Source: an uncultured Caldithrix sp.
Lineage (GTDB): Bacteria > Calditrichota > Calditrichia > RBG-13-44-9
Direction of reading: 5' to 3'
NCBI GenBank assembly: GCA_964461135.1
Contig: CAYWTB010000001.1
Location: 8,082-72,081 of the forward strand
DNA: 64,000 nt
This document shows positions 709-23,752 of this stretch, in pieces. The translations under genes and the position numbers were made by a program. The first letter of the stretch is position 1. Every line of letters starts with the position of its first letter. The notes beneath the pieces were generated by a model. It was not told where the DNA came from. It did no database searches and saw nothing but the letters and a program-made list of their open reading frames with translations.

Positions 709-764
709 GGATTAGTTCTCCCGGTTAAGCCCGTATTATTTATTTTAAAGGTAAAACCCGTTTT

Positions 765-1906: not shown

Positions 1907-3066
1907 TACACCACCTCCAAAATATGAACAAGAGTACTTCCCCCGCTTCCTCCCATGTTCTGGGAAAGGCCGGTTCGGGCGTTTTCCACCTGCCGGGCAC
2001 CGCCCTCCCCCCGCAGCTGAGTGACAATTTCCACAATCTGAGCAACTCCGGTAGCTCCCACCGGATGACCTTTCGATTTCAATCCTCCGCTCACATTTAC
2101 CGGGATCTTACCTCCCAACCGTGTTGCGCCTGAGGCTGTAGCGTCCCCGCCCTTCCCCCGGGCTGCAAAGCCCAATTCTTCAATCACACATATTTCTGCG
2201 ATGGTAAAACAATCATGAACCTCACACAGGTCAATTTTTTCCGGGGAAGTTTCTGCCATTTTGTAGGCCAGTTGTGCTGCTTTTGCGGTTGCCGGCAGGG
2301 AGGTCAGATCGGATCGGTTGTGTAACGCTATGCTGGCTGTGGCATGACCGAAGCCTTTTATTCTTACCGGAGGTTTTTTGGATATCTTTTTAGCCAGATC
2401 CAGCGGGCACAGGATTATGGCGGCAGCTCCATCGGTTATGGGTGAGCAATCCAGGATTCGGAGGGGATCGGCAATCATAACCGAATTCATAACCTGTTCT
2501 AGGGTTATTTTCTGAGGGTACTGAGCCAGCGGATTCATTGAACCGTGGTAGTGATTTTTCACCGCCACTTCGGCCAGCTGTTCACGGGTAGTACCGTATT
2601 TCAGCATATGAGATCTGGCCATCATAGCGTACAGTCCCGGAAAAGTGATGCCATGATAAACCTCGTAATCCTGGTCGGCAGCGGTAGCCAGTGCATAGGT
2701 AGCTTCATCCGTACCCACATCAGTCATTTTTTCCACCCCACCCACCAAAACCACGTCGCTTAATCCCAGGGCAACATCCATATAACCCATTTTTACAGCC
2801 AGGCCTCCCGATGCACAAGCGGATTCCACCCGGGCTGCCGGAATGGGGGTTACTCCCAGGTAATCTGCCATAAGGGCAGCCAGGTGTTCCTGGCCGGTAA
2901 AAATTCCCGCTGTCATATTACCAATATACATGGAGTCGATCTTATCCACCCCGGCATCATCAATAGCGGATTGTGCAGCCTCCACAAAAATATCCCGCAG
3001 AGAACTCTCCCATAATTCCCCCCATCTGCTCAAACCAATGCCAATCACTGCTACATCACGACTCAC
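1906..3066 (-). CDS. Thiolase family protein (acetoacetyl-CoA thiolase-like, SCP-x/archaeal type)
   Basis: [11 protein letters not shown]...ESACASGG (active-site Cys) ...GHPVGATG. 386 aa, thiolase fold signatures. Confidence 0.85.
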
Positions 3067-3105
3067 ATTCCGCTCCTTGTTTTTGCCTGCTCATATTTAT
3101 TGCCA

Positions 3106-4152
3106 TCAACTGTTTTTAATTATTTTTCGCCGGTATTTCGAATAAAGACCATAATCGAGATATATTTTTTCACCCTGAATGAGATCCCACGTTTTAGGAG
3201 CAGCGTCCCTCACCCTGCTGATTCTGTCGGTAATCTTCCAGATAAAGCCGTCGCTTCCCGCACCCGAGCCGTAAGATACCATAAAGATCAAATCCCCGGG
3301 ATTTGACACATCCAGGATGGCGGTTAGTCCCAGGGGCGACGAACCGGAGTAGGTATTTCCGATTTTAGGGCAGAGTAATCCCTGTGAAATCTGATCCTTG
3401 CTGAAACCCAGCATTTGTCCCACCTTGGTGGGGAATTTTCCGTTGGGCTGATGGAACACGGCATAAGCAAAATCGGATGGTTTCAATCCCGATTTATCCA
3501 GCATTGTTTTACCACACTGATATACGTGCTTAAAATACGCGGGCTCGCCGGTAAAACGGCCACCATGTTGCGGATAGAACTGGTGTTCCCGGCGCCAGAA
3601 GTCCGGTGTATCACTCATGAAGGAAAAGGTGAGTTCACAGCTAGCAATCAAATTATCTTTTCCCATGATAAAAGCCGCCGCACCGGCCGAGGCTGTATAC
3701 TCCAAGGCATCGCCGGGCGCGCCCTGGGAAGTATCCGCCCCCACCGCCAGGGCGTATTTCATGCTGCCGGCCTTTACCAACTGCAGGGCAACAAACATTG
3801 CCTCCGTTCCCGCTTTACAGGCAAATTCAAAATCGGCGCAATGGGCGTCCGGAGTGGCACCGATAGCTTCTCCCAGGGTTGTCCCGCTGGGTTTAACGGC
3901 ATAAGGGTGCGATTCAGAACCCACATAAACCGCTCCGATATCCGAGGCCCGGATACCTGCTCTGGCCAATGCCCGGCGGGACGCTTCCACAGACATGGTA
4001 ATGGTATCCTGATCGGGAGCAGGCACGGACTTTTCCTCTACCATTAATCCCTTACGGTAACTTTCCGCATCTGCCCCCCACTGGCGGGCGATTTCTTCAA
4101 CCCGGATCCGATATTTTGGAACATAACTGCCATATCCAACAATACCAACCAT
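3106..4152 (-). CDS. Hydroxymethylglutaryl-CoA synthase-like condensing enzyme (archaeal type)
   Basis: MVGIVGYGSYVPKYRI...ADFEFACKAGT... 348 aa. Initiation-condensing-enzyme fold with catalytic Cys. Typical of the HMGCS that partners with thiolase and DUF35. Confidence 0.75.
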   Translation of the reverse strand: MVGIVGYGSYVPKYRIRVEEIARQWGADAESYRKGLMVEEKSVPAPDQDTITMSVEASRRALARAGIRASDIGAVYVGSESHPYAVKPSGTTLGEAIGATPDAHCADFEFACKAGTEAMFVALQLVKAGSMKYALAVGADTSQGAPGDALEYTASAGAAAFIMGKDNLIASCELTFSFMSDTPDFWRREHQFYPQHGGRFTGEPAYFKHVYQCGKTMLDKSGLKPSDFAYAVFHQPNGKFPTKVGQMLGFSKDQISQGLLCPKIGNTYSGSSPLGLTAILDVSNPGDLIFMVSYGSGAGSDGFIWKITDRISRVRDAAPKTWDLIQGEKIYLDYGLYSKYRRKIIKNS

Positions 4153-4215
4153 ACCATTCTCCTTGTCTTAAATACAGCCCTGACCAAAGAACTTCAATCT
4201 CTTTGGACCTGAATA

Positions 4216-5469
4216 TCAGGCGATTGCCGGTTTAAAAATAAATGTGGCAACGGTTTTGTCATCGCCGCCCATATTGATCATCATCCCATAAGGTCTCCCG
4301 GATGTTAACGGAACCTGGTACTCCTCCGCCCTTCCGGTCAGTTGCTGCCAGAGATCTACCGCCTGGCGGACACCCGTCCCGCCGGTAGGATGACCAAATC
4401 CGATAAGTCCACCGCTGGCATTTACAGGTATTTGGCCGCCTATAGCCGTCTTTTTTTCACTGATAAAATCCGCAGCTTCCCCTTCCTCCACTATGCAGGC
4501 GGCTTCCAGGGCAAGTAACGCCGTTATGGTAAAACAATCATGAATTTCCATGACACCGATGTCGGACGGTTTCAATCCTGCGCTTTCATAGGCTTTTTCG
4601 ACTGCTTTCTGAGTGGTGGTCAATCGGGTAAGATCTTTTGGCGGTTGCTTAATATCATCAACGGCGATTCCCAGAGATACCAGTTCAATGGCATCCCTGC
4701 GATCAATATTCAGTTTTTTTAAGCCGTCTTCAGAAGCGACAATCAGGGCAGAACCTCCGTCAGTCACTTTGGAGCAATCAAAAACGTTTAAATGCTCAAC
4801 AAAATACTTGGGATTGGGTGGAGTCATACCAGAGGCAAAAAGATCGTCAGTGGAATTATGATATTCCTGGGCCTTGGGATTTTTCCGGGCATTTTGAATC
4901 GCCTGTTCATACCAGTGTGCCATGGCAGTCCGTATTTTTTCCTGGCCGTACTTCCGGTAGCAGGCACCCGCCCTCTGAGAAAATTTGTCAGGAAAGAAAT
5001 GCGCATGACCTTCTTTTCTTTCTCCCTCATAGTACCCTGCCCCGGCCAGAAAATCTGCCCCATATACCGCTTTTACCGAGTTCTGTACCTCAACTCCCAC
5101 TGTCAGGACAACATCGGAAATTCCGGAGAGAACACTTTTTATGGCGGTATAGACACCTAATCCACCCGAACCACAGGCTCCTTCAATACGGGAGCATGGT
5201 TTATACAATAAGGACGGATCAATGGAGGGAATGAAAGCGGCCAGATTGCCCTGACGGTTGAAACGTGCAGCCATAAAATTTGATACCACACCTTCATCGA
5301 TCAGGTCAGCCCGGTTATTAATCCGGGCAATTGCCCCTTTCCCGGCTTCAATGATGTAATAATCAATTCCCGGCCGCGGTTTTTTAGGATGAAATTCTCT
5401 TCGTCCCGATCCTAAAAATACCGTATTATAACCAGCGGTCAGAAATACAGGTTTAGTTAATTTATTCAT
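4216..5469 (-). CDS. Thiolase-like protein (acetyl-CoA C-acyltransferase family)
   Basis: 417 aa. ...CSRIEGACGSGG ... GHPTGGTG ... thiolase N- and C-domain motifs. Confidence 0.75.
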   Translation of the reverse strand: MNKLTKPVFLTAGYNTVFLGSGRREFHPKKPRPGIDYYIIEAGKGAIARINNRADLIDEGVVSNFMAARFNRQGNLAAFIPSIDPSLLYKPCSRIEGACGSGGLGVYTAIKSVLSGISDVVLTVGVEVQNSVKAVYGADFLAGAGYYEGERKEGHAHFFPDKFSQRAGACYRKYGQEKIRTAMAHWYEQAIQNARKNPKAQEYHNSTDDLFASGMTPPNPKYFVEHLNVFDCSKVTDGGSALIVASEDGLKKLNIDRRDAIELVSLGIAVDDIKQPPKDLTRLTTTQKAVEKAYESAGLKPSDIGVMEIHDCFTITALLALEAACIVEEGEAADFISEKKTAIGGQIPVNASGGLIGFGHPTGGTGVRQAVDLWQQLTGRAEEYQVPLTSGRPYGMMINMGGDDKTVATFIFKPAIA

Positions 5470-5515
5470 ATTATCCCCGGTTTTTTAATCACAACTGTAG
5501 CACCTGATATTTTCA

Positions 5516-6856
5516 TTAAATATATTGATTTATGGGTCCATACAGATGATAGAACCCATTGAGCAACACCCCATTTACATCATCTTCCGAGCGGGCGACT
5601 CCGCTCTTCACCAGATTCCCGGCAATTTCCTTACTGTTCCGGAGATAATCCCTGGCCAGCACGGCACCCGGAGTGCCATCGGATTTAAGATTCCGGAAAT
5701 ATTGGGCAAGCTTTTCCTCCTTTTGAGGATCGCTCAGCAGTGCCCTCCAGGGAACAAATCCCAGCGGAGGATTTCCGGTTTTTTCTTCTGTTTTTTGCTT
5801 CCAGTCTCCTTCCTCAAACAGACGGTACCCGGATTTATCCGGATCATATACTCCGGATGGCCGGTTCTTTTCATACTTTAAGAATCCGTCTTTCTGGCTT
5901 CCCTCCGGATTCTGACCTCCCAGAACTTTCTGTTCGACCAGTTCATCAACTACCTTACTGTGCAGCTTCTCCTTTGGAAAATGAGGATTCATGGTTCGGA
6001 GAATACATTGAAACACATCAATTCCCACGTAATCAATTAGTTGAAAAATACCCATGGGGCGGATGAGAAAATCCTGACTGATTCGATTGAGAATATAAAC
6101 CCCCTCTACAAAACCGTATTCTTTCTGCAATTTTTCTACCTGATCCAGAGCATACAACCCATCGCGCATGAAGTGCCCGTTGCCAATAAAACCAGCCACA
6201 TCATTGGATGGAATGAGAGTTTTTCGTAGCCGTTTTCCGAGCTCCAGTCCCAATTCATGAAGCTCCGGATTTAATCCAACGGGCGAAATCACCTCTACCA
6301 GTTTCTGGACTGCCGGCGGATTGTAGAAATGATAACCGATGATTCTGCCACCTAATCCTGCCTGCTTATCCAGGAAACCTATGGGAATTGAGGAGGTGTT
6401 GGTGAGAAAGAACGCATCGTCTGAGCAAATCTTTTTTACTTTTTTCAGCAGAGATATCTTTAAATCCGCATCTTCCAGAACTGCTTCGAATATCATCCGT
6501 GAATTTTTCAACTGGCTCATATCAGTACTGATCCGGATATTCAGGAAAAAATCATTCACAAACTGGTTAATGAACTCATGATTTTCCACCAGTTCCTGAT
6601 GATCCTGGTATGCTTTCCGTAACATCCCGATATTTCTTTCCGCATGCTTGACAGCCTGGGTTCGGAGGTACTGCAGCAATCCTTCCAGCCTGGCGGCATC
6701 AGTATCAATGAGGTGCAATTCGCAGGTATCGTTTTTATGTTCGGGTGACAGACGCTGCATGGTCATTTCCTGGCCCATCAAAAGAGCAATTCCGCTTCCC
6801 ATTTTGCCGGCAGCACCTATTACACCCACATTACAAAGACGTTCATTCAATGTCAT
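5516..6856 (-). CDS. 3-hydroxyacyl-CoA dehydrogenase (long form, NAD-binding)
   Basis: VGVIGAAGKMGSGIA Rossmann motif and HBD-family C-terminal domain. 446 aa. Confidence 0.75.
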   Translation of the reverse strand: MTLNERLCNVGVIGAAGKMGSGIALLMGQEMTMQRLSPEHKNDTCELHLIDTDAARLEGLLQYLRTQAVKHAERNIGMLRKAYQDHQELVENHEFINQFVNDFFLNIRISTDMSQLKNSRMIFEAVLEDADLKISLLKKVKKICSDDAFFLTNTSSIPIGFLDKQAGLGGRIIGYHFYNPPAVQKLVEVISPVGLNPELHELGLELGKRLRKTLIPSNDVAGFIGNGHFMRDGLYALDQVEKLQKEYGFVEGVYILNRISQDFLIRPMGIFQLIDYVGIDVFQCILRTMNPHFPKEKLHSKVVDELVEQKVLGGQNPEGSQKDGFLKYEKNRPSGVYDPDKSGYRLFEEGDWKQKTEEKTGNPPLGFVPWRALLSDPQKEEKLAQYFRNLKSDGTPGAVLARDYLRNSKEIAGNLVKSGVARSEDDVNGVLLNGFYHLYGPINQYI

Positions 6857-6923
6857 GCTCTACCTTTCTGGTATAAAGATTCTGGTATTACAGTTTCATA
6901 CACTTCTATGCAATCTGATTATA

Positions 6924-8066
6924 CTAATTCAGGTTTTCGGCAATAATCTCTGTCAGATCTTTAATTTTAAAGGATATCTCTTCTTTTAACTGCTTATCCA
7001 GAAGAGCACACTGAAAGTGTATCTGGCACTTGGGACAGGAGGTCACCAGAATATCTGATCCGGTTGCCTGAGCTTCCCTTAAACGCCGGGCCTGAATCTG
7101 TTTTGAAATCTGCGAACAGTTCATCCAGCTGCTTACCCCGCAACAGATGGCTCGTTTATGATGGTGAGCCATCTCGGTCAGTGAAAGCCCTTTCAGCTGA
7201 GACAATGCCTGCCGGGGAGCATCATAAATACCCATATGCCTGCCCAGGCGGCAGGGATCCTGAAAACAGGCGGTAAGCGGTTGACCTTTCAATGAAACAG
7301 TGGTTTCGGGGAGCCGTTGTGCTAAAAACTCACTCACATGCTGCACTTCAAAATCAAGCTTTCCGAATAGTCCGGCGTATTCGACTTTCAGGGTGCGATA
7401 ACATTCGGGGCAGGCGGTAATGACGTATTTGGCTCCCGATTTTTTAATCTGTTCAATGTTCTGTTCAGCCAGTTTTCGAAAATTCTTTAAATCCCCGTTC
7501 CAGTAAAAATCATGTCCGCAACATTTTTCATTGGGCAATACCTGGGGTTTAATATCGAAATGATTCAAAATTTTCATCATACTGCGGGCAATATTTAAAG
7601 GCTGGACCTCAAGATCAGAAAACAGCGCCTCATAGTAAGGCAGGCAACCCACAAAGTATAAATAATCTCCAGACGTTGATGTCTGGTATTCTTTGCTTAG
7701 CCAGTCCAGCCGCTGCTGTTTGAGATCGGGTGAGGTCATGATTTTTAGAATTGAATCCAGAATGCCGCCATGGGAGCAGGTACCTTCGCGGTTCTCCACG
7801 CCCATAAATTGCCGCATCAGCTGAATAAACTCGATATATTTTATATGAGACGGGCAGATGGTATCACATTGCTGACAGGTTAAACAGGACCACAAATCCG
7901 CTCCCTTCAGTCCATCAGGATGAGTATTCCTTATGGATCTGATCAGGATAAGCCGTGGAGAAAAAGTCTTCGAATGACGGGAAACCGGGCACACACCGGT
8001 GCATTTGCCACATTCCAGACAGGCAAAGGCATTGGTTTCCTGAATTTGTTTAAAATTAAATTCCAT
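6924..8066 (-). CDS. hdrD: HdrD-like (fused HdrC+HdrB) Fe-S / CCG-domain protein
   Basis: Two 4Fe-4S ferredoxin motifs (CLECGKCTGVCP, CLTCQQCDTICP). Two cysteine-rich CCG domains follow (CCGHD...CPECY; CCGVSS...CPKCQ). Confidence 0.75.
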   Translation of the reverse strand: MEFNFKQIQETNAFACLECGKCTGVCPVSRHSKTFSPRLILIRSIRNTHPDGLKGADLWSCLTCQQCDTICPSHIKYIEFIQLMRQFMGVENREGTCSHGGILDSILKIMTSPDLKQQRLDWLSKEYQTSTSGDYLYFVGCLPYYEALFSDLEVQPLNIARSMMKILNHFDIKPQVLPNEKCCGHDFYWNGDLKNFRKLAEQNIEQIKKSGAKYVITACPECYRTLKVEYAGLFGKLDFEVQHVSEFLAQRLPETTVSLKGQPLTACFQDPCRLGRHMGIYDAPRQALSQLKGLSLTEMAHHHKRAICCGVSSWMNCSQISKQIQARRLREAQATGSDILVTSCPKCQIHFQCALLDKQLKEEISFKIKDLTEIIAENLN

Positions 8067-8092
8067 GTCGAAATTCCACTTTCATTTAATAT

Positions 8093-8572
8093 TTAAGCAT
8101 TGGCGGCAATTTTATCTTTTTGTGCGGAGACGCTGTCTTCCTTAATGGATTTCAGGGGAGTAGGTCCCAGCTTCCTCACCTCTTCCACCATTTCCTTAAC
8201 AACTTTTACAAACTTGGGAAATTCAGCTGCAGAGATGAATTCCTGCCGTATTCTTTCCTTCTCAAATCCCAGCATTCTGACCACTGCCTTCAGTTTTTTA
8301 TATTGTTCCGCCGCCTTGCGGGCACCGAAACTGTAATGGCAATCCTCAAAGTGGCAGCCGGATACCAGTACTCCGTCCGCTCCCATCTCCAGCGCTTTCA
8401 GGACATGTGCGGGATTGACCCGTCCCATGCACATGGTACGAATGATCCGGATATTGGCAGGATACTGCATCCGGTTAATCCCGGCGGAATCAGCCGCGGG
8501 ATAACTGCACCAGTTACAGGCGAATACGACAATCCTCGGTTCAAACTCTTTCTTTGCAGCTTTTCGGGTCAT
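8093..8572 (-). CDS. mvhD: MvhD-like hydrogenase iron-sulfur subunit (HdrA electron-transfer partner)
   Basis: IVVFACNWCSYPAADSAG ... VSGCHFEDCHY: the MvhD signature. Confidence 0.85.
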   Translation of the reverse strand: MTRKAAKKEFEPRIVVFACNWCSYPAADSAGINRMQYPANIRIIRTMCMGRVNPAHVLKALEMGADGVLVSGCHFEDCHYSFGARKAAEQYKKLKAVVRMLGFEKERIRQEFISAAEFPKFVKVVKEMVEEVRKLGPTPLKSIKEDSVSAQKDKIAANA

Positions 8573-8621
8573 GTGTTAGTCTTTCTCCTGTCCGGTTGAA
8601 CTCTCCTGCGGGACTGCATTT

Positions 8622-11600
8622 CTAAACGGCCTCCTCTTCCAGTAAAAATGCCCTGAGCATGGATTCAATCTGGCGATCCCGGAAATGCTGAATGTCAATG
8701 GCACTGGTGGGACAGAAGGTTGCGCAGGTTCCGCATCCTTTGCAGAGGGCTTCATTAACTGTTGCCAGCATAATTCCACCCCTATCCTGCAGAGAGAGTG
8801 CACCGAATTCACACACTTCCACACAGGTACCGCATCCACGACACAAATCCTCCCTCACAGACGAAACCAGTGGTTCCATCAGAATTGTGGATCTGGCCAG
8901 CAAAGCATCTATTTTTGCGGCCACCGCATTAGCCTGTCCGATGGAATCGGAAATATCCTTGGGGCTCTGTACGCATCCGCAGATAAATACTCCTTCAATA
9001 TTGGTTTCCACCGGACCAAACTTGGGATGCTTTTCCAGTAAATATCCGTCCATACCCACCGGAACTTTTATGAACTGCTGGATATGTTCGATTGAGCCGG
9101 AAGAGGGACGCATGCCGACCGACAGGATCAGAAGATCAACCGGAACTTCTATATCGGTTTTCAAAGATGGTTCCCAAAACCGAAGAGTTTCCACATTCTT
9201 ATGGCCGGTCAGCCGCGGAAGATCCTGCGGCGTAAAGCGTACAAACCTGACTCCCAGCTCCCGGGCCTGCCGGTACATGGTTTCAGCTTCATGGTGATAT
9301 ACCCGGATATCACGGTTAAAAACGGTAACTTCTATTCCCCGCTGCCGTAAAGCAATCGACTGCTTAATGGCCGCCTGGCAGCAATATCTTGAACATTCGG
9401 GCAATCCTTCCGGCCCGCGGGACCCCACGCACTGGATAAATGCCACCTGTTTGATTTCTTTTCCGTCAATGGCCAGCAACTGCTCCTTCTTCAAACGATT
9501 TTCCAGTTCCATGTTGGTGATGACATTTTTATATTTGCCATACCCGAACTCATTCTTGACGGGTTCATATAAACTGAATCCGGTTGCCAGAACAATAGCA
9601 CCCACCATGAACGGTTTATTCTCAGACTTTCCGTTAGTGGATTTCAGAGTGACTTCAAAATTCCCCACGAAACCTTTAATATCCTCAATATCGGTATCTG
9701 TAAATATTTTTACTTTGTCTTTATTTAATTCCTGCACTTTACTCCGGATCAGTTCTTTACCGGACATTCCGCTGGGATAAAGGATCTCCAGCTCTTTTAC
9801 CCATCCTCCCAGGGCCTTGTCTTTTTCCACCAGCAGGACGTTGTAATCCCGTTTTCCCAGCTGAAGCGCCGTTTCAATGCCCGAAATTCCGCCACCGATA
9901 ACCAGCACGTCATGTCCGATTTCCATCTCCTTCGGCTCCAGCGGTTCCAGCTGCCGCACCCTGGCCACCGCCATGCGGAGCAGGTCTTTTGCCTTACGCG
10001 TGGCCGCATCCGCAGCCTGCCCATGAACCCAGGAACATTGATCCCGGATATTAGCCATCTCCAGCAGATAAGGATTAAGGCCCACCTTGCGCAAGGTTTC
10101 CCGGAATATCGGTTCATGAGTACGAGGAGTACAGGCAGCCACCACCACCCGGTTAAGACGGTTAGATAATATTTTTTCCTGTATATTCCTTTGAGTACTC
10201 TCGGCACAGGCGAAGAGGAGATCTTCGGAGAATACCACATCCGGCAATCCGAGCGCATAATCCTTGAGAGTTTCCACATCCAGAACACCGGCGATATTGG
10301 ATCCGCAATGGCACACAAAGACGCCTACCCTCGGAGATCCGCTATAGTCGTATTCCGGGATTTCCTCTTTGATTTCGGGCATTTTATGGTGGGTAAGAAA
10401 CTGGGCGGCTCTCACTGCCGCACCCGAAGCCTCTGCAATAGAATCGGTAATATCCTTGGGACCGGTGGTGCATCCACACAGATAAATGCCTTCACGCCGG
10501 GATGATATGGGATCTCCGCAACGGTCTCTGGGAAGGAAAAATCCGCGGCTATCGGTTTTGATCTCCAGAATTTCCGCCAGGCTGTGGGACTCGGCAGCCG
10601 GTACCACCGCTTCCGATAAAATAACCATGCCGGTGCGCAATTTATCCGTCTGTCCGGTTTCCACATTTTCATTGAGAATGACCAGATCTCTGCTGCCGGG
10701 GTCTTCCACAATGCGGGACGGTTTTCCTCTGATAAAATGAATATTTTTATCGTGTAACGCTCTCTGATAAAATTGTTCAAATCCTTTACCAAATGCACGG
10801 ATGTCAATATAAAAAATATCAACACTGGTCTTGGGATACATTTCGCGTATCAGCAGAGCACTTTTTATGGCGTTCATGCAGCATATTCTGCTGCAGTAAG
10901 GTATATCCCGGCGGATACACCGCGATCCCACGCATTGAATGAATGAGACCCGCTTCGGTGGTTTCTGGTCGGTAAACCTGACTAATTGTCCCCCGGAAGG
11001 GCCGCTGGGACTGAGCAGCCGTTCAAGTTCGATGCTGTTTACCACATTTTCGAAACGTGTATATCCGTATTCGCTGGCCTCCCGCGGATCATAATAATCA
11101 ATACCGGTGGCAATAATGACTGCCCCCACATCAATCTCTTCCGTTCTATCCGGCATATCCAGATCAATGCAATTTTTCTGGCAGACGTCCACGCATTTTC
11201 CGCAGGCAATGGGATTGGTACCAAGACAATCATCGGCAGACCGGATATAGGCGGATGGAACGGCTTGTGAAAATGGAGAGTAAATAGCTCGCCGCAGGCA
11301 TAATCCTTCATCAAACTCATTGGGCTGAACTACAGGACAGACGTCCGAACAATCTCCGCAGGCGGTACATTCCGCTTCATTTACAAATCTGGCTTTACGA
11401 AGAATTTTTGCTCGGAAATTTCCGGCCTTGCCTGAAAGTCTAACAAGTTCTGCATTGGTATACAACTGAATTCTGGGATGCCGACCGACATCCATCATCT
11501 TGGGACCGAGAATTCAGATAGCGCAGTCCATGCTGGGAAAAGTCTTGTCCAGCTTGGCCATGGTTCCACCAATACTGGGCTGCTTTTCCAGCAGGTATAC

Positions 11601-11699
11601 CTGGAATTGGGCATCAGCCAGGTCCAGCGCCGCCTGAATTCCGGAAATACCTGCCCCCACAATCAAAGCACCCTTGGGTCTTTCTGATCTGGAAACCAT
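8622..11699 (-). CDS. hdrA: Tandem-domain heterodisulfide reductase subunit A (HdrA). Selenoprotein with in-frame UGA at 11514..11516. About 1024 aa.
   Basis: The ORF track splits it into 11514..11699 and 8622..11498, but ...[27 protein letters not shown]... is in frame. Architecture: FAD domain ([19 protein letters not shown]), then 2x[4Fe-4S] ferredoxin and a 4-Cys [10 protein letters not shown] domain. A second FAD domain ([15 protein letters not shown]) lacking the Cys/Sec motif and a C-terminal 2x[4Fe-4S] ferredoxin follow. Confidence 0.85.
11463..11513 (-). promoter_or_regulatory. Candidate SECIS hairpin 3' of the UGA (mRNA GGAUG-UCGGUCGG-CAUCC)
   Basis: Stem-loop at 11476..11493. The same element is found after the UGA of the hdrA paralog at 112. 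Confidence 0.35.
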
Positions 11700-11809
11700 A
11701 CTTCCCTTTCCATTTGGAATTTACGTTACGTATATGGATAATTATTGGCTATCCGCAAATTTCAAATTTCAGATTTATGATAAATGACAACCAATAATCG
11801 AGCTTTACA

Positions 11810-12379
11810 TCAGGCAACACTTTTTTTAGGAGACTCCAGCAGACTTTTTCCGTATTGAAAACCGGTTTCAAAGGCTTTTAGATTGAGCTCTTCCGTTCCC
11901 GGAGGAACAGATGTTTCAACGGCTTTTTTGGTAGCCTCATAGGACGTAATCCCGGTAACGGCGGAGAAAAATCCCACCATAATAATATTGGTAACAATCT
12001 TGCGGCCCATTTCTTCCGCCAGGCGGGTGGCCGGAATGGCATAGGTGGAGACTTTTTTTGAATTCTTTGCAAGGTGCACCAGATCCTTTTCCACCAGTAA
12101 TATACCATCCTCCGGAATTTCTCCGCTGAATTTGTCATGCGCATCCCGGGACAGGAGGACTCCTATATTAGGTTGAATAAGGTAGGGGTAAAGAATCTGC
12201 GACTCGGAAATGATAACCTGGGCTGAACAGGAACTCCCGCGCGCTTCAGGTCCGAAACTCTGAATCAGGGTGGAATATTTATTATCATAAATAGCTGCTG
12301 CTTTCCCGATAATATAACCCGCCAGGATAATTCCCTGCCCGCCAAATCCGGCGATACGAATTTCACTGTTTTTCTTCAT
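11810..12379 (-). CDS. 2-oxoacid:ferredoxin oxidoreductase, gamma subunit
   Basis: EIRIAGFGGQGIILAG... Por/Vor/Kor gamma family. 190 aa. Confidence 0.8.
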   Translation of the reverse strand: MKKNSEIRIAGFGGQGIILAGYIIGKAAAIYDNKYSTLIQSFGPEARGSSCSAQVIISESQILYPYLIQPNIGVLLSRDAHDKFSGEIPEDGILLVEKDLVHLAKNSKKVSTYAIPATRLAEEMGRKIVTNIIMVGFFSAVTGITSYEATKKAVETSVPPGTEELNLKAFETGFQYGKSLLESPKKSVA

Positions 12380-13286
12380 GCACAACCCCGTAAGGTTTAA
12401 ATTTGTTCCCTAATTTCTTCTGCAGATATTCATTGTACTGATCCAGATAGGAGGGTTTATCTATATCAATAAATTTCCCAACCTTTATTTCTTCCTGAAA
12501 CTGGATAGAAACATCACGAACATCGGCACCATGTGCTATGACAGAATTATCATGATAAAATTTCATCAGATCCAGACCGCTTCCCAGGCGGTTTTTGCGG
12601 GCGTAGAGAGTTGTACAGGGGCAGATTATTTCCACAAAGGAAAAACCCTTTTTATGCAAGGCTTCATTTATAGAGTTGGTGAGCCGCCTGACGTGCAGGG
12701 CGGTCCAGCGGGCCACGTACACCGCACCACAGGAGGCTGCCAGCAACGGAAGATTAAAGGGATTTTCATAACTCCCATAGGGAGCGGTAGTGGCAATTGC
12801 AGTAAGCGGAGTGGTTGGTGCCAGTTGACCACCGGTCATGGCATATATAAAATTATTAATACACAATACAGTGATATCAAGATTGCGCCTGGCGGTATGG
12901 ATGAAGTGATTGCCTCCGATGGAAATCAGGTCACCATCCCCACTAAAAACCACTACCTTCAGTTTTGGCTTGGCCAGTTTCAGGCCCACGGCAAACGGAA
13001 TGGCACGGCCGTGAGTGGTATGAAAGGAATCCAGTTTAATATAACCGGCGATTCGTCCGCTGCAACCGATCCCGGACACAACACTGATATCCTCCTTTGG
13101 AATCTGTGATTTTTTCACTGCTTCAATAAAACAGGTTACCGCTGTTCCAATTCCGCAGGTCGAACACCAGATATGAGGAATCCGATCCATCCGCAGCCAT
13201 TCCGAGAGAGGATGTTCCGCACCGTTCTCCTGTTCTTTTTTAGTTTTTGTCCCGGGCTTGACTTTTTCGATAACTTCGGCTTTCAT
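12363..13286 (-). CDS. 2-oxoacid:ferredoxin oxidoreductase, beta subunit (TPP-binding)
   Basis: WCSTCGIG...GIGCSGR...GDGD TPP-binding motifs. Start ATG overlaps the alpha stop (ATGA). Confidence 0.85.
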   Translation of the reverse strand: MKAEVIEKVKPGTKTKKEQENGAEHPLSEWLRMDRIPHIWCSTCGIGTAVTCFIEAVKKSQIPKEDISVVSGIGCSGRIAGYIKLDSFHTTHGRAIPFAVGLKLAKPKLKVVVFSGDGDLISIGGNHFIHTARRNLDITVLCINNFIYAMTGGQLAPTTPLTAIATTAPYGSYENPFNLPLLAASCGAVYVARWTALHVRRLTNSINEALHKKGFSFVEIICPCTTLYARKNRLGSGLDLMKFYHDNSVIAHGADVRDVSIQFQEEIKVGKFIDIDKPSYLDQYNEYLQKKLGNKFKPYGVVHEEKQ

Positions 13287-14443
13287 TTATGTGCCTCCTT
13301 AATTGCCTCTTGGATACATTCCGGCCTGTGAACCGTTCCACCGCCATGGGGGACAAGTAAAGTCTTACATTGTCCGCCTGTACACCGTTCAACCTCATAA
13401 ACAATCTGGCCGTAATTCATCTCCGGTACCACAAACGCCTTTATTTTGGGAGCCAGCTTCCGAATCAGATTTTCCGGAAACGGCCATACAGTAATGAGAC
13501 GGACATGACCGATTTTTTTAATTCCATCCTCCTGCGCCAGCTGAATTCCTCGCAGCGCAACCCGGGAAGTTATACCATAAGAGATCACCACAATTTCAGC
13601 ATCATTCAGATTTTCTTCTTCGTAAATATAAATATCATCAGCGTTCTTTTTAATTTTATCTATCAGGCGGTGAACACATTTCTCCTGAGTCTGCCAGCTC
13701 ATGTCAGGATATCCCCGTTCATCATGAGTCAGTCCGGTCACATGAAAAAAGTGGCCGCGACCCGCCTCTACCATATCGGGTACCAGGTCTTCTCCCGCTT
13801 CGAAGGGCAGATATTGTCCAGGCTTTTTACTGGTAAATCGACGGGGAAACAACTCAATTTTTTCGGGTTCCGGAATCACCACTTTTTCAGTCATATGGCC
13901 GACGCATTCATCCATCATGAATAAAACCGGTACCCGGTATTTTTCAGATAAATTAAAGGCGGTAATGGTAAGATCGAAGCATTCCTGCGGTGAATTGGGG
14001 CAGAGGGCAATAATTTCGTAGTCTCCGTGTGATCCCCAGCGGGCCTGCATCATATCCGCCTGGCCGGGAAGTGTAGGCAATCCGGTTGAGGGTCCGCCCC
14101 GCTGAACGTTCACCACCACGCATGGAGTTTCCAGCATGACCCCCAGGCCAATATTCTCCATCATTAGTGAGAATCCCGGACCTGAGGTTACCGTCATGGA
14201 TTTTGCCCCTGCCCATGATGCTCCCAGGATAGCCGCCATGGAAGCAAGTTCATCCTCCATCTGAATGAACATACCACCTACCATGGGAAATCGTTCGGAT
14301 ATCCGCTCGGCGACTTCGGTTGAGGGAGTAATCGGATATCCCGCAAAGAACCGGCAGCCTGCCGCCAGACCACCTTCCGCACAGGCCTTATCACCATCCA
14401 GATAATGCATGCCGGTTAATACCCCTGCCGAATCAGCTTTCAT
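13283..14443 (-). CDS. 2-oxoacid:ferredoxin oxidoreductase, alpha subunit
   Basis: GYPITPSTE...VTSGPGFSLM family motifs. Start placed at the internal ATG (MKADSAG) preceded by AAGGAG. The upstream extension in the ORF track overlaps the delta gene. Confidence 0.85.
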   Translation of the reverse strand: MKADSAGVLTGMHYLDGDKACAEGGLAAGCRFFAGYPITPSTEVAERISERFPMVGGMFIQMEDELASMAAILGASWAGAKSMTVTSGPGFSLMMENIGLGVMLETPCVVVNVQRGGPSTGLPTLPGQADMMQARWGSHGDYEIIALCPNSPQECFDLTITAFNLSEKYRVPVLFMMDECVGHMTEKVVIPEPEKIELFPRRFTSKKPGQYLPFEAGEDLVPDMVEAGRGHFFHVTGLTHDERGYPDMSWQTQEKCVHRLIDKIKKNADDIYIYEEENLNDAEIVVISYGITSRVALRGIQLAQEDGIKKIGHVRLITVWPFPENLIRKLAPKIKAFVVPEMNYGQIVYEVERCTGGQCKTLLVPHGGGTVHRPECIQEAIKEAHK

Positions 14444-14714
14444 GTGCTCGCTCCTTTTCGTTCTGAAGTACACAATATATCGCAAATTCCGGGCATAACA
14501 TCTCACACAGCTGACAATGAACACAGATAGTCCCATTCTTTACAATCGGGGGATGGTAACCTTTGGAATTGAATTCTGTGGAAAGTTCTAGAACATCTTT
14601 GGGGCAATATTCCACGCAAAAACCACACCCTTTACATCGTTCCCATAGAATATGAAGCTCTCCGTGAGGAATTTTTACCCGGTCGATATCCAACGGTTTA
14701 CGCCAATATTTCAT
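14433..14714 (-). CDS. 2-oxoacid:ferredoxin oxidoreductase, delta subunit (2x[4Fe-4S] ferredoxin)
   Basis: CKGCGFCVEYCP and CVHCQLCEMLCP motifs. 93 aa. Confidence 0.85.
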   Translation of the reverse strand: MKYWRKPLDIDRVKIPHGELHILWERCKGCGFCVEYCPKDVLELSTEFNSKGYHPPIVKNGTICVHCQLCEMLCPEFAIYCVLQNEKERAHES

Positions 14715-15064
14715 ATATTCCTCAAGCGCTATTTTATTTATTTTGATCTATATTAAGATTTAAAATTAAAATAACATGGTCCAGAAAATTTGGATACTTC
14801 TAAAACCGGTAAAGCCCTTCCAGATGCTGTCCAAAGAGAATTCGCCAGGAACGGGAGTGTGATCTGCGATACTCAGATTGAGAGAGAATTTTTTCCATAG
14901 TCATAAATAATTTATTGAAAAAATGTTCATTACAATCTGAAAATTCAGGATTATTAGAAACAAACAAAATATCCTAATAATCCCGTTTAAAACTTAATAT
15001 CTTTGAGTAAGATTGTCAACACCTTAGTTTTTTCGCCATTGCCGGAAAATGATAGTCTACTTGT

Positions 15065-15088
15065 GTTTTGGACAGTAACCTGTCCAAA
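15065..15088. promoter_or_regulatory. Perfect 10-4-10 palindrome TTTTGGACAG-TAAC-CTGTCCAAAA in the 5' region of the VOR-Hdr supercluster
   Basis: Exact inverted repeat. Related TGTCAAC half-sites occur at about 15014 and about 15102. Confidence 0.3.
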
Positions 15089-15176
15089 ATTTACATGAAA
15101 CCTGTCAACCAAATATACTCTAAGATTGAAAGACGAATTTGGAGGCTGCGGTGGTCGATTAAAAAATGTTCCGCGA

Positions 15177-15761
15177 TCAGTGTGTATCTGCAGTCTTTAA
15201 ATAAAAAACCAGTCTCAGTCGCACCACTTTTTTCATGGAGGTAAAGAGAAACTTTGGCTGGTTAATGTTGAAATCCGTGATATTCAGTTCGAAATTGGAG
15301 GATATTCGATATATATCCCCCATCAGCTGAATTGTTTCTTCCGGGGAAAACTCCATTTCCACCCCATGGATTTTTAACATTCCGCTGGCGGTCACTTCGC
15401 TGCCGTTCTGATCAATTATCCTCCATTGCGAAAGCCTTCCCTCAAAGACCGCCATGGGATATTCAGCAGTATCCAGATACTTATCACGCATATGTGTATT
15501 CCTGAGGCCGATGCCGGAATCCATTGTCCGGAGATCAACTTCAAAATGCACCCTGCCGGTACCCAGTGTATCATTATCCTCCCTGGAAATATATCCTTCA
15601 ATCTCGCTGGTCTTTCCTTCAAAATTTCCCATTGTTGAACCGGCATAAAAAACAACAGAATTATCACGGGTTAAGTCTACTTCCAAAAGTGCAGCATTAC
15701 CCATACCTGACCAAAAGAATAATCCCAATATTATGAATAGTCTGGTCATAATTATGATCAT
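15177..15761 (-). CDS. YceI-like periplasmic (polyisoprenoid-binding) protein
   Basis: Signal peptide followed by YceI-family beta-barrel-like sequence. 194 aa. Confidence 0.6.
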   Translation of the reverse strand: MIIIMTRLFIILGLFFWSGMGNAALLEVDLTRDNSVVFYAGSTMGNFEGKTSEIEGYISREDNDTLGTGRVHFEVDLRTMDSGIGLRNTHMRDKYLDTAEYPMAVFEGRLSQWRIIDQNGSEVTASGMLKIHGVEMEFSPEETIQLMGDIYRISSNFELNITDFNINQPKFLFTSMKKVVRLRLVFYLKTADTH

Positions 15762-15994
15762 AAAGTATAATTCCGTATTTTATTATTGCCCATTCACAAC
15801 CGCCCGGGCACCGGATTCCAAAATTAAAGATAAGAACAGGTTCTCGAAATTTGGACTTCTCCCTGATTAAACAAAATTGGTATTAATTTCATCATAACTT
15901 ACAATTTCTCGGTGCCCCGGAACCTTTGTGGTAAAATTAATGAATTACTCTGGTTAAAAATTTCTTAGGTTTGTTTATACGACCCCAATTCCAT

Positions 15995-17041
15995 TTAATA
16001 TAACTGTTCCCTTGGTGAAACCGGACCTTCCAGGGCTTCCGGTTTTATTTTTCCGGTCAGGGATTTCAGAAAGGCCACAATATGATTTGCTTGGTCGGAG
16101 GACAACTCTTTTCCCAATTGAAGTCTGGCCATCATGGGAACTACCCGGTGCAGGTTATCCACGCTGCCATCGTGGAAATAAGGTGCGGTCATTTCCACAT
16201 TCCGCAGGGGGGGTACCTTGAATACATACAGGTCCGCCGTATCCCCGGTAACAGCAAACCTGCCGGAATCGATTTCGGTACTTCCGATCAGTTTCCAGTA
16301 GGGCTCAATAATGCCAAATTTTTCATACTGCCCGCCACCCACCAATACTCTGTTATGACAATCTTTGCATCCGGTATCCATAAATATTTTCAAACCCTTC
16401 TGTTCTTTTTCCGTAAGGGCATTGGGATGCCGCTTCAAAAACTGATCAAAGCGGGAAGGAGTTACCAGGGTTCTTTCCCAGGCACCAACGGCCAGCCCGA
16501 AATTTCTGGCATTTAAAGGGACAGAGTCATTGGGAAACGCTTCTTTAAACAGTCCCTGATAACCGGCAATGAAATTCATTTTTTCTTCTGCCTGTTCATA
16601 GGATTCCAGACCATAGGAGCCATGTCCCAGCAAAGCTTTCTGTGCCTGATCCTCCACAGATTTACGGTTGCCGATCCAGTGCTGGGATATCTGCAGAGCT
16701 GAATTCAGAACGGTGGGAGCATTTCTGGGATTGAGCCGGTAATTATTCCCGATCGATTTTTTTAATCCGTCGGTGCCATACAGGTTCATCCAGTGACATT
16801 TGAAACAACTGGTTGTACCATCGATGGAAAGGCGGGTATCATAAAACAGCATCTTCCCCAGTTTGGTTTTTTCGGGGGTTATGAGATTATCGCCCGAAAT
16901 CATTTTCCCCGGAAGAACCTGGAAATAATTCCGGGCTTCGCTGACCAGGGAGTTCTTCTTCCCGCAGGTTAATAAAACGCCACTCGAAATGATAAGTACC
17001 ATCATAAAAAGGTAAAAGGTCTTCATCTCGGTTGCCTCCAT
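15995..17041 (-). CDS. Di-heme cytochrome c peroxidase (CCP/MauG family)
   Basis: Two CxxCH heme motifs (CFKCH, CKDCH). Signal peptide. 348 aa. Confidence 0.85.
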   Translation of the reverse strand: MEATEMKTFYLFMMVLIISSGVLLTCGKKNSLVSEARNYFQVLPGKMISGDNLITPEKTKLGKMLFYDTRLSIDGTTSCFKCHWMNLYGTDGLKKSIGNNYRLNPRNAPTVLNSALQISQHWIGNRKSVEDQAQKALLGHGSYGLESYEQAEEKMNFIAGYQGLFKEAFPNDSVPLNARNFGLAVGAWERTLVTPSRFDQFLKRHPNALTEKEQKGLKIFMDTGCKDCHNRVLVGGGQYEKFGIIEPYWKLIGSTEIDSGRFAVTGDTADLYVFKVPPLRNVEMTAPYFHDGSVDNLHRVVPMMARLQLGKELSSDQANHIVAFLKSLTGKIKPEALEGPVSPREQLY

Positions 17042-17134
17042 TAAATGTTATCCCCCAAAAAATTTATGCCGTTCGGCCCGTTCTAGCTTTTTTCACCATA
17101 ATAGCGGATTTTATTTCCAGAATATTATGAAGCT

Positions 17135-19225: not shown

Positions 19226-19566
19226 TGAAAGTTCCTCCTAAGATGAAAAGATTATTTCAAATCATTCAGTTTTTATCTGACCTCATGCCAGAGTTTTTAT
19301 ACACATAATTATTTTAGCCTTTAGACCATATTTTCAGAAACAGAATTGACAAAAAAGTGAACTGTTTTTATTTAAGGCTCACCTCTCATGCAATTTGCTC
19401 TTTTATTTTCGCGGCTTCACAGAGTATGCTGTTTGAACCTGCATATTATTCAATCCGCAACAATCCATACGTCTTTTCCCATAGCGTTTTTCATTTCTGC
19501 GGGCTATTTCTTCCAGCCATTTTTTTTTACCAAGCATGATAATTATACTCCCAACTGGTGTTGAAA

Positions 19567-23637: not shown

Positions 23638-23752
23638 TAGTCATTCATTCAATGTCTGGTGTCGGTTGTTTGCGATCCGCAGCCGGCTTCCTTTCAATCA
23701 CCGCTTCAAAATCGGCAATCCGGAAGGGCCGGGACTACGGACCCTATAAAAC

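Follow-up and report, generated by a model that had tools for sequence, protein, structure and literature searches.

With which of its genomic neighbours does a bacterial heterodisulfide reductase (Hdr)-like module exchange electrons? The question is raised by a 64,000-nucleotide stretch of DNA from an uncultured Caldithrix sp., referred to here as the window, in which genes for HdrA, an MvhD-type adaptor and an HdrD-like protein stand between those for a four-subunit 2-oxoacid:ferredoxin oxidoreductase (OFOR) and a set of acyl-CoA enzymes. The initial annotation of positions 5516-14714 had read the OFOR as a VOR and the Hdr genes as a bifurcating or confurcating bridge between it and the acyl-CoA enzymes, at work in amino-acid fermentation. 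The answer developed here keeps the linkage of OFOR and Hdr and the bifurcation type of the module, and abandons the acyl-CoA bridge, the VOR identity and the amino-acid fermentation: the region probably represents a cluster of OFOR, Hdr and HdrA2 genes that is conserved in more than a dozen phyla and that received an acyl-CoA insertion in Calditrichaceae only, with the Hdr module acting in bifurcation or confurcation and OFOR/ferredoxin as its likely low-potential partner.

Layout of the locus and conservation of the cluster

The genes on which the argument turns are the following (lengths in amino acids, aa).

14433-14714, minus strand: OFOR delta subunit, 93 aa, with two CX2CX2CX3CP motifs (Fer4/Fer4_7)
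13283-14443, minus strand: OFOR alpha subunit, 386 aa (POR_N and PFOR_II)
12363-13286, minus strand: OFOR beta subunit, 307 aa, thiamine pyrophosphate-binding (TPP_enzyme_C)
11810-12385, minus strand: OFOR gamma subunit, 191 aa, TTG start (PF01558 POR; NF006323, 211 bits)
8622-11699, minus strand: fused double HdrA with selenocysteine (Sec) at residue 62, 1025 aa, translated through a TGA and aligned to Methanothermococcus wolfeii HdrA (5odc_A)
8093-8572, minus strand: MvhD-type [2Fe-2S] adaptor, 159 aa (PF02662, 173.7 bits, cut-off 22.3, profile positions 1-123 of 123)
6924-8066, minus strand: HdrD-like fused HdrC/HdrB protein, 380 aa (Fer4_8, and PF02754 matched twice)
1-708, minus strand: second HdrA, of the HdrA2 type, with N-terminal and flavin adenine dinucleotide (FAD) domains, running off the window

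All the genes named by the initial annotation are present with their Pfam or NCBIfam identities, share the minus strand and are separated by short gaps; the thiolase, too, is real, but its position (5469-4216) falls outside the stretch 5516-14714 in which it had been placed. A minus-strand run of fifteen co-oriented genes with small gaps spans this stretch and goes on for seven genes beyond it, ending at the second Sec-containing HdrA (708-1). From OFOR delta down to the dehydrogenase that follows the HdrD-like gene, the gaps measure -11, -4, -23, 110, 49, 26 and 67 nucleotides (nt), the widest separating OFOR gamma from HdrA and the remainder being small or negative. A promoter and terminator scan found no terminator-like site in any intergenic gap of the run, and promoter-like matches were not commoner there than in shuffled sequence; with counts near or modestly above the shuffle expectation, neither kind of signal defines transcription units. 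No membrane protein is encoded within the run, and no methanogenesis gene in the window.

Is the proximity of OFOR and Hdr genes an accident of this genome? When an alignment of the HdrD-like protein was scanned over one genome per species, at least 595 genomes were found to encode a relative, and 81 non-redundant loci (from the best 80 plus four obtained by metagenome look-ups) were analysed. According to their record titles, these span Calditrichota, Zixibacteria, KSB1, Marinimicrobia, WOR-3, Gemmatimonadota, Eisenbacteria, Ignavibacteria and Aminicenantes, and further Phycisphaerae, a deltaproteobacterium, Chloroflexota/Dehalococcoidia, Methanoperedens and a Halobacteriota archaeon. The conserved unit was derived in two ways, by mapping the window proteins onto the loci and by independent clustering of all open reading frames (ORFs) of the loci, and both approaches gave the same result, namely OFOR delta-alpha-beta-gamma, HdrA, MvhD, the HdrD-like protein, HdrC/HdrB in some cases, and HdrA2. 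MvhD lies directly upstream of the HdrD-like gene in 75 of the 81 loci; OFOR alpha and beta are found upstream on the same strand in 36 of the 50 loci with at least 7.5 kb of upstream sequence; and HdrA2 follows the HdrD-like gene within 2.5 kb in 46 of the 65 loci that extend at least 3 kb downstream. The ORFs of OFOR gamma and HdrA overlap or are at most 30 nt apart in 12 of 35 loci, and another 15 loci show an apparent gap of 150-400 nt, the size expected of a short fragment preceding the Sec codon. With the OFOR upstream in so many phyla, and its last gene so often overlapping or nearly touching HdrA, the linkage proposed in the initial annotation is not accidental. The profiling of gene order across related genomes that it had recommended thus bears it out for the OFOR; the acyl-CoA linkage, in contrast, is met with in Calditrichaceae only.

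The HdrA upstream of MvhD takes different forms in different lineages: a single unit, a unit fused to MvhD, a fused double unit, or an ORF of more than 1100 aa. Single-unit versions never carry the Cys197 motif (0 of 33). ORFs of more than 1100 aa occur in 12 loci, and a GltD/NfnB-like NAD(P)-binding domain was detected in all five long HdrA proteins that were scanned, with model NF009410 above its cut-off in three. Long HdrA proteins with such a NAD(P)-binding flavoprotein domain, which makes them two-flavin proteins of 1100-1440 aa, are found in WOR-3, Zixibacteria and Chloroflexota, the long-HdrA loci including L016 (5210-9421), L019, L076, L029, L030 and L051; at the WOR-3 locus L016, the NAD(P)-binding domain is spliced inside the inserted ferredoxin domain of HdrA. 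At the ends of the cluster, a gene resembling the small subunit of [NiFe]-hydrogenases comes after it in six loci, some of them from Dehalococcoidia and Chloroflexia, and a Cys-rich ORF of about 89 aa (no Pfam match) lies directly upstream of OFOR delta in six loci (L037, 4477-4746, among them), two of which belong to Neomarinimicrobiota.

The fused double HdrA and its selenocysteine

The HdrA of the window, which had been taken for a single unit, is a fused double unit of 1025 aa, to which the HdrA of M. wolfeii (5odc_A) aligns in three pieces. Unit 1 (approximately residues 10-440) matches residues 145-480 of the M. wolfeii protein and holds a FAD-binding thioredoxin reductase (TrxR)-like domain, a 4-Cys cluster site, K279, the C59/U62 pair and an inserted two-cluster ferredoxin domain; both the N-terminal domain and the ferredoxin domain at the C-terminus are missing from it. 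In unit 2 (approximately residues 455-1025), which aligns to residues 3-163 and 482-646, a TrxR-like domain occurs for the second time, again with a cluster and with K779, and it is accompanied by the N-terminal cluster domain and by the two-cluster ferredoxin domain of the C-terminus; the Cys197 motif and the inserted ferredoxin domain are absent. The FAD motifs of the two units are G15-G20, C256/C269/C273/C274 and K279 in unit 1, and G601-G606, C757/C769/C773/C774 and K779 in unit 2. Thus, the hallmark set of HdrA (TrxR-like FAD domain, GxGxxG, the 4-Cys pattern CVGSR...C...CC and the equivalent of Lys409) is present twice, whereas the Cys197/Sec site, the inserted ferredoxin domain, the N-terminal domain and the C-terminal domain are present once each and divided between the units. 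From this arrangement the protein is predicted to be a built-in heterodimer with two FAD and seven [4Fe-4S] clusters. Against the curated HdrA models, it scores 1096.8 with the HdrA2 model NF040770 (cut-off 1100) and 831 with NF041778 (cut-off 1400).

The reading frame of unit 1 is interrupted by a stop codon, which is followed by a potential selenocysteine insertion sequence (SECIS).

11514-11516, minus strand: in-frame TGA, Sec at residue 62, in the motif DCAI-U-ILGPK, aligned with Cys197 of M. wolfeii HdrA
11476-11493, minus strand: SECIS-like hairpin with GGUC in the loop and a 7-bp stem (GGAUGUC/GGCAUCC), which begins 23 nt from the U of UGA

There is good evidence, obtained by comparing sequences, that this TGA is decoded as selenocysteine. 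At the sites of the same peptide motif in the fetched loci, the codon is TGA in 68 of 87 cases and a Cys codon in 19, and 67 of the 68 TGA sites, as opposed to one of the 19 Cys-codon sites, are followed by a hairpin whose stem has at least 6 bp and whose loop lies at +30, from which the assignment is drawn; the loop of those hairpins reads GGUC in 55 and GGUA in 10. The hairpin was detected solely through this direct comparison of TGA and Cys-codon sites: a search of positions 1-16000 against Rfam at E <= 1 returned nothing, no SECIS family included, and the minimum-free-energy z-scores of both SECIS-like regions of the window are unremarkable. The Sec-incorporation genes selA, selB and selD are not in the window, nor is a tRNA-Sec, the tRNA scan of the window having found no tRNA.

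The second of the SECIS-like regions belongs to the HdrA2 gene at the start of the window, in which a Sec codon (TGA at 112-114) is accompanied by a hairpin with a GGUC loop at 74-91. HdrA2 is the gene right after the HdrD-like one in most other loci, at 66-88% identity, and its full-length orthologues consist of about 200 + 610 aa and end in a C-terminal MvhD domain; the typical HdrA2 across the loci combines the N-terminal domain, Sec at the Cys197 position and this C-terminal MvhD domain. HdrC and HdrB come after HdrA2 in other Calditrichota (L008/L009).

MvhD and the HdrD-like protein

The MvhD-type adaptor has cysteines at positions 19, 22, 48, 73 and 78 and scores 133 bits with the VhuD model. 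The HdrD-like protein combines two CX2CX2CX3C ferredoxin motifs with two complete CXnCCGXmCXXC (CCG) motifs; in 12 sequences reaching down to 49% identity, 19 of the 20 motif cysteines are invariant and the remaining one, C222, is nearly so. The invariant residues of the CCG part are C141, C182-C183, C219, C272, C308-C309, C344 and C347. Its nearest relatives of solved structure are an 'iron-sulfur-binding reductase' (9ojn), HdrC and HdrB, and the top curated model is that of TfrB, at 142 bits far below its cut-off of 385. The membrane-linked HdrDE of the Methanosarcina type was considered and ruled out: no cytochrome b subunit HdrE adjoins, the neighbours being MvhD and a soluble dehydrogenase, and the HdrD-like protein is not assigned to this type because of the absence of that subunit. 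Judged by their defining motifs, the window proteins are members of the HdrA, MvhD and CCG/HdrD superfamilies, and their domains and cofactor motifs fit the proposal, made at the outset, of a non-methanogenic HdrA/MvhD/HdrD-like module of the flavin-based bifurcation type.

The 2-oxoacid:ferredoxin oxidoreductase

Which oxoacid does the OFOR act on? In its subunits and in the gene order delta-alpha-beta-gamma, it corresponds to the four-subunit KorDABC/OorDABC enzymes. The alpha subunit exceeds the cut-off of the generic 2-oxoacid equivalog NF006412 alone (575 bits, cut-off 411), and its nearest relative of solved structure is the alpha subunit of the Pyrococcus furiosus 2-keto acid:ferredoxin oxidoreductase (1yd7), followed by the 2-oxoglutarate synthases 8ys5 and 6n2n. 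The top NCBIfam match is the 2-oxoglutarate:ferredoxin oxidoreductase (OGOR) beta subunit for OFOR beta and OGOR_delta for OFOR delta, and yet all OGOR-specific models remain under their cut-offs (alpha, 367 against 579; beta, 239 against 364; delta, 69 against 125). The 2-oxoglutarate models outscore those for VOR, both sets being below cut-off. The VOR label of the initial annotation had to be given up, since alpha passes the generic model only and the NCBIfam VOR models fall well short (VorB NF005507, 287 against 399; the Vor beta model NF008818, 61 against 405). On these scores the enzyme is best described as a four-subunit OFOR of the generic/2-oxoglutarate (KGOR/OOR-like) type, to which no specific curated assignment applies.

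Orthologues of the alpha subunit are 385-386 aa long; those linked to Hdr genes share 58-87% identity with the window protein across phyla, as against 51% for the second OFOR copies in L004 and L013, and orthologues of delta upstream of Hdr genes in other loci are 59-91% identical. In other phyla, the orthologous clusters are flanked by genes for citrate synthase, malate dehydrogenase, succinyl-CoA synthetase (SucCD) and malic enzyme. These tricarboxylic acid (TCA)-cycle neighbours indirectly favour 2-oxoglutarate as the substrate of the OFOR, and amino-acid fermentation is not indicated by them.

The acyl-CoA cassette

Between the HdrD-like gene and HdrA2, the window carries six genes.

5516-6856, minus strand: 3-hydroxyacyl-CoA dehydrogenase family protein, 446 aa, the first cassette gene (3HCDH_N and 3HCDH)
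4216-5469, minus strand: SCP-x-type thiolase, 417 aa, constant partner of the dehydrogenase (Thiolase_C_1)
3106-4152, minus strand: archaeal-type HMG-CoA synthase, 348 aa (NF003274, 542.6 against 244; TIGR00748, 537.7 against 353)
1906-3066, minus strand: archaeal-type acetoacetyl-CoA thiolase, 386 aa (NF004720, 552 against a cut-off of 420)
1517-1906, minus strand: DUF35 zinc-ribbon/OB-fold protein, 129 aa (zf-ChsH2 and OB_ChsH2_C)
765-1532, minus strand: TPR-repeat protein, 255 aa, the last gene of the insertion, with an orthologue before HdrA2 in L005

The dehydrogenase belongs to a conserved family of 444-446 aa. The adjoining genes for HMG-CoA synthase, the second thiolase and DUF35 satisfy the curated models of the archaeal-type thiolase/HMG-CoA synthase/DUF35 trio; with the M. 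thermolithotrophicus-type model, the acetoacetyl-CoA thiolase scores 534 (cut-off 600). The position of the TPR protein is occupied in L087 by a protein of 240 aa, identified by position.

Homologues of the cassette adjoin Hdr genes only in the relatives within Calditrichaceae (L005, L006, L007, L087), whereas in other Calditrichota (L008, L009) HdrA2 comes straight after the HdrD-like gene with no cassette in between. Its content varies, L005 and L087 having a three-gene acyl-CoA carboxylase that is absent from the window; this biotin-dependent enzyme (carboxyltransferase, biotin carboxylase and biotin carboxyl carrier protein) is encoded between DUF35 and HdrA2, at 16204-19855 in L005 and at 15539-19190 in L087. 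Elsewhere, the same genes keep other company. A WOR-3 genome contains the whole dehydrogenase-thiolase-HMG-CoA synthase-thiolase-DUF35 cassette after a Leu/Val-type dehydrogenase, an acyl kinase and an enoyl-CoA hydratase, and a Zixibacteria genome the dehydrogenase-thiolase pair, followed by two acyl-CoA dehydrogenases, a hydratase, an amino-acid dehydrogenase and a kinase; neither of these two loci (L085, L086) has Hdr genes. The acyl-CoA carboxylase and the HMG-CoA synthase hint at a metabolism of the leucine/isovaleryl-CoA type. To judge from its restriction to Calditrichaceae, its variable content and its occurrence elsewhere without Hdr, the cassette is a separate module that was inserted into the Hdr cluster in this family alone. 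In Calditrichaceae it may well be co-transcribed with the Hdr genes, yet their function is not defined by it.

Proposed mechanism and alternative explanations

Starting from the gene identities, the selenocysteine, the domain and cofactor motifs and the conserved synteny, we infer the following as to complex formation, substrates and direction of the Hdr/OFOR system. The Hdr module would be a flavin-based electron-bifurcating or confurcating enzyme with its branch point at the FAD of HdrA unit 1, beside the C59/U62 pair and K279. On the low-potential side, formed by OFOR and ferredoxin, the electrons would be used to carboxylate an acyl-CoA reductively (succinyl-CoA being the likeliest) or would be delivered by the oxidation of a 2-oxoacid; along the high-potential branch, they would pass from the cluster of the TrxR-like domain to the two non-cubane clusters of the HdrD-like protein, and from there to a candidate disulfide or a docking flavoprotein. 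The third, mid-potential substrate would be supplied by a module encoded outside the window, NAD(P)H being a candidate on account of the NAD(P)-binding domain fused into HdrA in other lineages, and H2 the alternative on account of the hydrogenase-like small subunit encoded downstream in six loci and of the Hdr-hydrogenase cluster of Caldithrix abyssi. By standard potentials, the NADH-driven reduction of a high-potential acceptor together with reductive carboxylation is exergonic, and the reverse, confurcation to NAD+, is not; for this reason we lean slightly toward the reductive, bifurcating direction.

Several observations count against such a scheme. Both TrxR-like units keep the lysine and the 4-Cys cluster, so that the choice of the bifurcating FAD follows only from analogy to BamE, the fused HdrA of class II benzoyl-CoA reductase. 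No genes for a mid-potential donor (hydrogenase, Flx or NuoEF-like) were found in the 64-kb window, and among the clustered ORFs of the related loci a thiol carrier, an electron-transferring flavoprotein (ETF) or a fumarate-reductase flavoprotein is not a conserved neighbour. The 110-nt gap between OFOR gamma and HdrA contains a sigma-70-like match that allows separate transcripts, such matches being no more frequent than expected by chance. Finally, about a quarter of the informative loci, mostly of Dehalococcoidia/Chloroflexota, carry the Hdr genes without an OFOR, and the Hdr module can therefore work without one beside it.

How do other explanations compare? The bridge of the initial annotation would have the Hdr module balance reduced ferredoxin from the OFOR against NADH and an acyl-CoA or ETF couple in the degradation of (branched-chain) amino acids. 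The shared orientation of the fifteen genes, the shortness of their gaps and the absence of terminator-like sites fit it, as do the aminotransferases and the ADP-forming acyl-CoA synthetase also encoded in the window; the cassette accompanies elsewhere a Leu/Val dehydrogenase, an acyl kinase, acyl-CoA dehydrogenases and an enoyl-CoA hydratase, a pathway that needs an OFOR, and in class II benzoyl-CoA reductase the HdrD-like BamD passes electrons to ETF, the partner of acyl-CoA dehydrogenases. However, orthologous clusters elsewhere are devoid of acyl-CoA genes, an outcome that the initial annotation had itself named as speaking against the idea: the linkage is restricted to Calditrichaceae, and HdrA2 directly follows the HdrD-like gene in other Calditrichota and in 46 of 65 loci overall. 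The cassette, moreover, differs in content between relatives (the acyl-CoA carboxylase of L005/L087 is not in the window) and occurs without Hdr in WOR-3 and Zixibacteria; the window cluster encodes no acyl-CoA dehydrogenase or ETF, the dehydrogenase it does encode is of the NAD-dependent type that needs no Hdr, and the clusters of other phyla are flanked by genes of the TCA cycle rather than of amino-acid metabolism. We regard this bridge as quite unlikely. A dependence on H2, with an Mvh-type bifurcating Hdr-like enzyme whose hydrogenase is encoded elsewhere and an OFOR that shares no more than the ferredoxin pool, is unlikely as well, if to a lesser degree. It would account for MvhD, the adaptor to MvhAG in methanogens, and for the [NiFe]-hydrogenase small-subunit-like gene that follows the cluster in six loci, some of them from Dehalococcoidia and Chloroflexia, and it agrees with literature reports of Hdr genes upstream of a group 3c hydrogenase in Caldithrix abyssi and of MvhADG-HdrABC in Cloacimonadota clade B. 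Yet no hydrogenase gene was found in the 64-kb window, nor beside the cluster in most loci, the gene overlaps and the order of OFOR and HdrA that different phyla have conserved speak for a tie closer than a common pool, and the fusions to a NAD(P)-binding domain in other lineages suggest pyridine nucleotides.

Two enzymes that are built from the same kinds of subunits were also considered. That HdrA, MvhD and the HdrD-like protein belong, as BamEFD, to a class II benzoyl-CoA reductase that serves to degrade aromatics anaerobically is very improbable, in spite of the identical subunit types and of a fused HdrA co-linear with BamE (C59/C62, a lysine near 280, seven clusters): the ORFs scanned across the window include no aldehyde-oxidoreductase-type BamB, no BamC and no NuoEFG/HydBC-like BamGHI, on which ground this assignment was rejected, and the MvhD of canonical size with Cys19, the two intact CCG motifs and the lysine at the second FAD site point the same way. 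The chance that the module is a genuine methanogen-type reductase of the coenzyme M-coenzyme B heterodisulfide (CoM-S-S-CoB) is slighter still and practically negligible. Its top sequence matches are indeed methanogen HdrA, HdrC and HdrB, but the closest relatives are found in metagenome-assembled genomes of Calditrichota, the window carries CusA-like and outer-membrane efflux (OEP) genes and no methanogenesis genes, members of the family occur in a dozen bacterial phyla, and all methanogen equivalog models stay below their cut-offs; it was rejected on the host and on these cut-offs.

The preferred reading, a bifurcating or confurcating Hdr module with OFOR/ferredoxin as its low-potential partner, admits a bolder form, which is possible but on balance rather doubtful: from Calditrichota to Chloroflexota, OFOR and Hdr might form one physical supercomplex, with the delta subunit wired directly to the inserted ferredoxin domain of the bifurcating HdrA. 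The model is taken from Fmd wired to Hdr in methanogens and from BamBC wired to BamE. If it were true, reductive carboxylation could be powered by a mid-potential donor, NAD(P)H for example, with no need of a free pool of low-potential ferredoxin, and the HdrD-like subunit would discharge the high-potential electron to a disulfide or to a flavoprotein (for instance a fumarate reductase or ETF).

Other features of the window

A block of about 12.7 kb (14715-27428) separates the OFOR operon from a short-chain dehydrogenase gene at 27429-28217. It encodes YceI, a MauG/MbnH-like di-heme peroxidase, a copper P-type ATPase, RseC-like, CusA-like and CusB-like proteins and an outer-membrane efflux protein, and it looks like a metal-resistance insertion, since the orthologue of the short-chain dehydrogenase (73% identical) lies about 0.4-0.7 kb upstream of OFOR delta in the relatives L005 and L087.

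A PcrB-family gene (geranylgeranylglyceryl-phosphate-synthase-like, 41420-42169) shares the window with the archaeal-type HMG-CoA synthase/thiolase/DUF35 trio, and the combination recalls the archaeal-type ether-lipid genes that have been reported in bacteria of the FCB group. An ADP-forming acyl-CoA synthetase of 705 aa (50315-52432) and two aminotransferases, of class I/II and class IV (58306-60700), are of the kind typical of peptide fermenters that use OFORs. A cluster for thiamine biosynthesis or salvage at 30796-35146 comprises two AIR-synthase-related ORFs, TenA, thiamine-phosphate synthase and phosphomethylpyrimidine kinase. At E <= 1e-8, Pfam gives no match for either of the large ORFs at 54867-56948 (693 aa) and 62034-63731 (565 aa).

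Implications

Bifurcating complexes of the Hdr type have been described or proposed before, as have fused HdrA, Sec in HdrA and an association of OGOR with Hdr. No description of the OFOR-HdrA-MvhD-HdrD-like-HdrA2 cluster came up in literature searches that joined HdrA, MvhD, HdrD and oxoacid/oxoglutarate with the candidate phyla; where Hdr is mentioned in papers on Caldithrix abyssi, Aegiribacteria, Cloacimonadota and anaerobic digesters, it is in other contexts only. Bacterial Hdr-like complexes are abundant in anaerobes, and here one of them is paired with a defined enzyme, the four-subunit OFOR, as a concrete candidate for its low-potential partner, in a cluster kept by phyla that are common in sediments and un- or seldom cultivated (Calditrichota, Marinimicrobia, Zixibacteria, KSB1, WOR-3, Chloroflexota). 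The idea of coupling OFOR and Hdr, proposed so far only for a rare reductive TCA (rTCA) cluster of sulfur-oxidising symbionts, would thereby be extended to heterotrophs, and such a coupling, if true, would change the models of ferredoxin balance, reductive carboxylation and direction of the TCA cycle in these lineages. The HdrA architectures, which are single, doubled by fusion, fused to MvhD or provided with an inserted NAD(P)-binding domain, make up a natural series for the study of the wiring of bifurcation. At the same time, the beta-oxidation neighbourhood proves an unsafe basis for inferring the acceptor of the HdrD-like protein.

Comparison with known systems

Sec at the Cys197 position is a trait that the window HdrA shares with the HdrA of Sec-using methanogens. 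With the MvhADG-HdrABC complex of hydrogenotrophic methanogens (PDB 5ODC), the module has in common the domains and cofactor motifs of HdrA, the MvhD adaptor and the HdrC- and HdrB-like parts; it differs in its bacterial host, in the absence of hydrogenase genes and of any coenzyme M/coenzyme B context, in the fusion of HdrB and HdrC and in an HdrA that is fused as an asymmetric pseudo-heterodimer. Fused HdrA proteins were also described in anaerobic methanotrophic (ANME) archaea by Chadwick et al., who inferred two complementary units, one with the N-terminal domain and the other with Cys197 (PMC9012536). The likeness lies in an HdrA of more than 1000 aa with complementary units and in the HdrD-like genes that occasionally occur in those clusters, and one of the fetched related loci is from Methanoperedens (L074). 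In the window, however, the order of the units is inverted, that with Cys197/Sec coming first and that with the N-terminal domain second, and the partner is the OFOR instead of an FdhAB-like module.

In the cassette, HMG-CoA synthase, thiolase and DUF35 are encoded in this order and pass the curated models, as expected of the archaeal thiolase/HMG-CoA synthase/DUF35 complex. That complex was reportedly described by Vögeli and colleagues in 2018. Unlike it, the trio of the window belongs to a bacterial host and is preceded by the 446-aa dehydrogenase and a further thiolase, and in the relatives of the window it is followed by the acyl-CoA carboxylase.

In the rTCA cluster of tubeworm symbionts and Thioflavicoccus mobilis, the genes are arranged as tfrAB, hdrCB, korDABC, hdrA, flxD(MvhD-like)CBA, and the authors proposed that its Hdr bifurcates electrons of NADH, with the four-subunit OGOR as one direct recipient and thiol:fumarate reductase as the other (PMC6315080). 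A four-subunit OFOR followed directly and in the same direction by hdrA and an MvhD-like gene is common to both, and TCA-cycle genes lie near several of the orthologous loci. Nevertheless, the window lacks the genes for the FlxABC NADH dehydrogenase, TfrA/FrdA and ATP-citrate lyase; its family has a fused HdrD-like protein, HdrC/HdrB accompanying it in some loci only; its HdrA is doubled and contains Sec, with a second HdrA2-MvhD present; and the sulfur-oxidising autotrophs of that work contrast with the mostly heterotrophic sediment lineages of the window family.

The most detailed comparison is with class II benzoyl-CoA reductase, the subject of a cryo-electron microscopy preprint (10.64898/2026.04.10.717634). 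There, BamE is a fused HdrA dimer with a Cys59-Cys62 pair, seven clusters, a bifurcating FAD beside Lys280 and a second, non-bifurcating FAD; its inserted ferredoxin domain supplies BamBC, the catalytic module of low potential, BamF is the MvhD adaptor, and the HdrD-like BamD hands the high-potential electron to ETF (10.64898/2026.04.10.717634). BamDEF of Geobacter metallireducens thus consists of the same three subunit types as the window module, a fused HdrA dimer, an MvhD adaptor and an HdrD-like HdrBC fusion. The likeness extends to a fused HdrA that begins directly at the TrxR domain and, when matched by the published residue numbers, to C59/U62 for Cys59/Cys62, K279 for Lys280, and seven predicted [4Fe-4S] clusters with two FAD. 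The gene order is E-F-D in the window and D-E-F in Bam. No BamBC or BamGHI genes are found in the window, where the adjoining catalytic enzyme is the OFOR. BamF is extended and carries Sec19, whereas the window MvhD has the canonical size of 159 aa and Cys19, Sec being located in HdrA instead; most BamD homologues have a disrupted distal non-cubane cluster, whereas both CCG motifs are complete in the window protein; and BamE has Gln768 at the second FAD site, where the window HdrA keeps a lysine (K779). These differences separate the module from class II benzoyl-CoA reductase; by analogy of subunits and cofactor sites, BamDEF is nonetheless the characterised machine closest to it.

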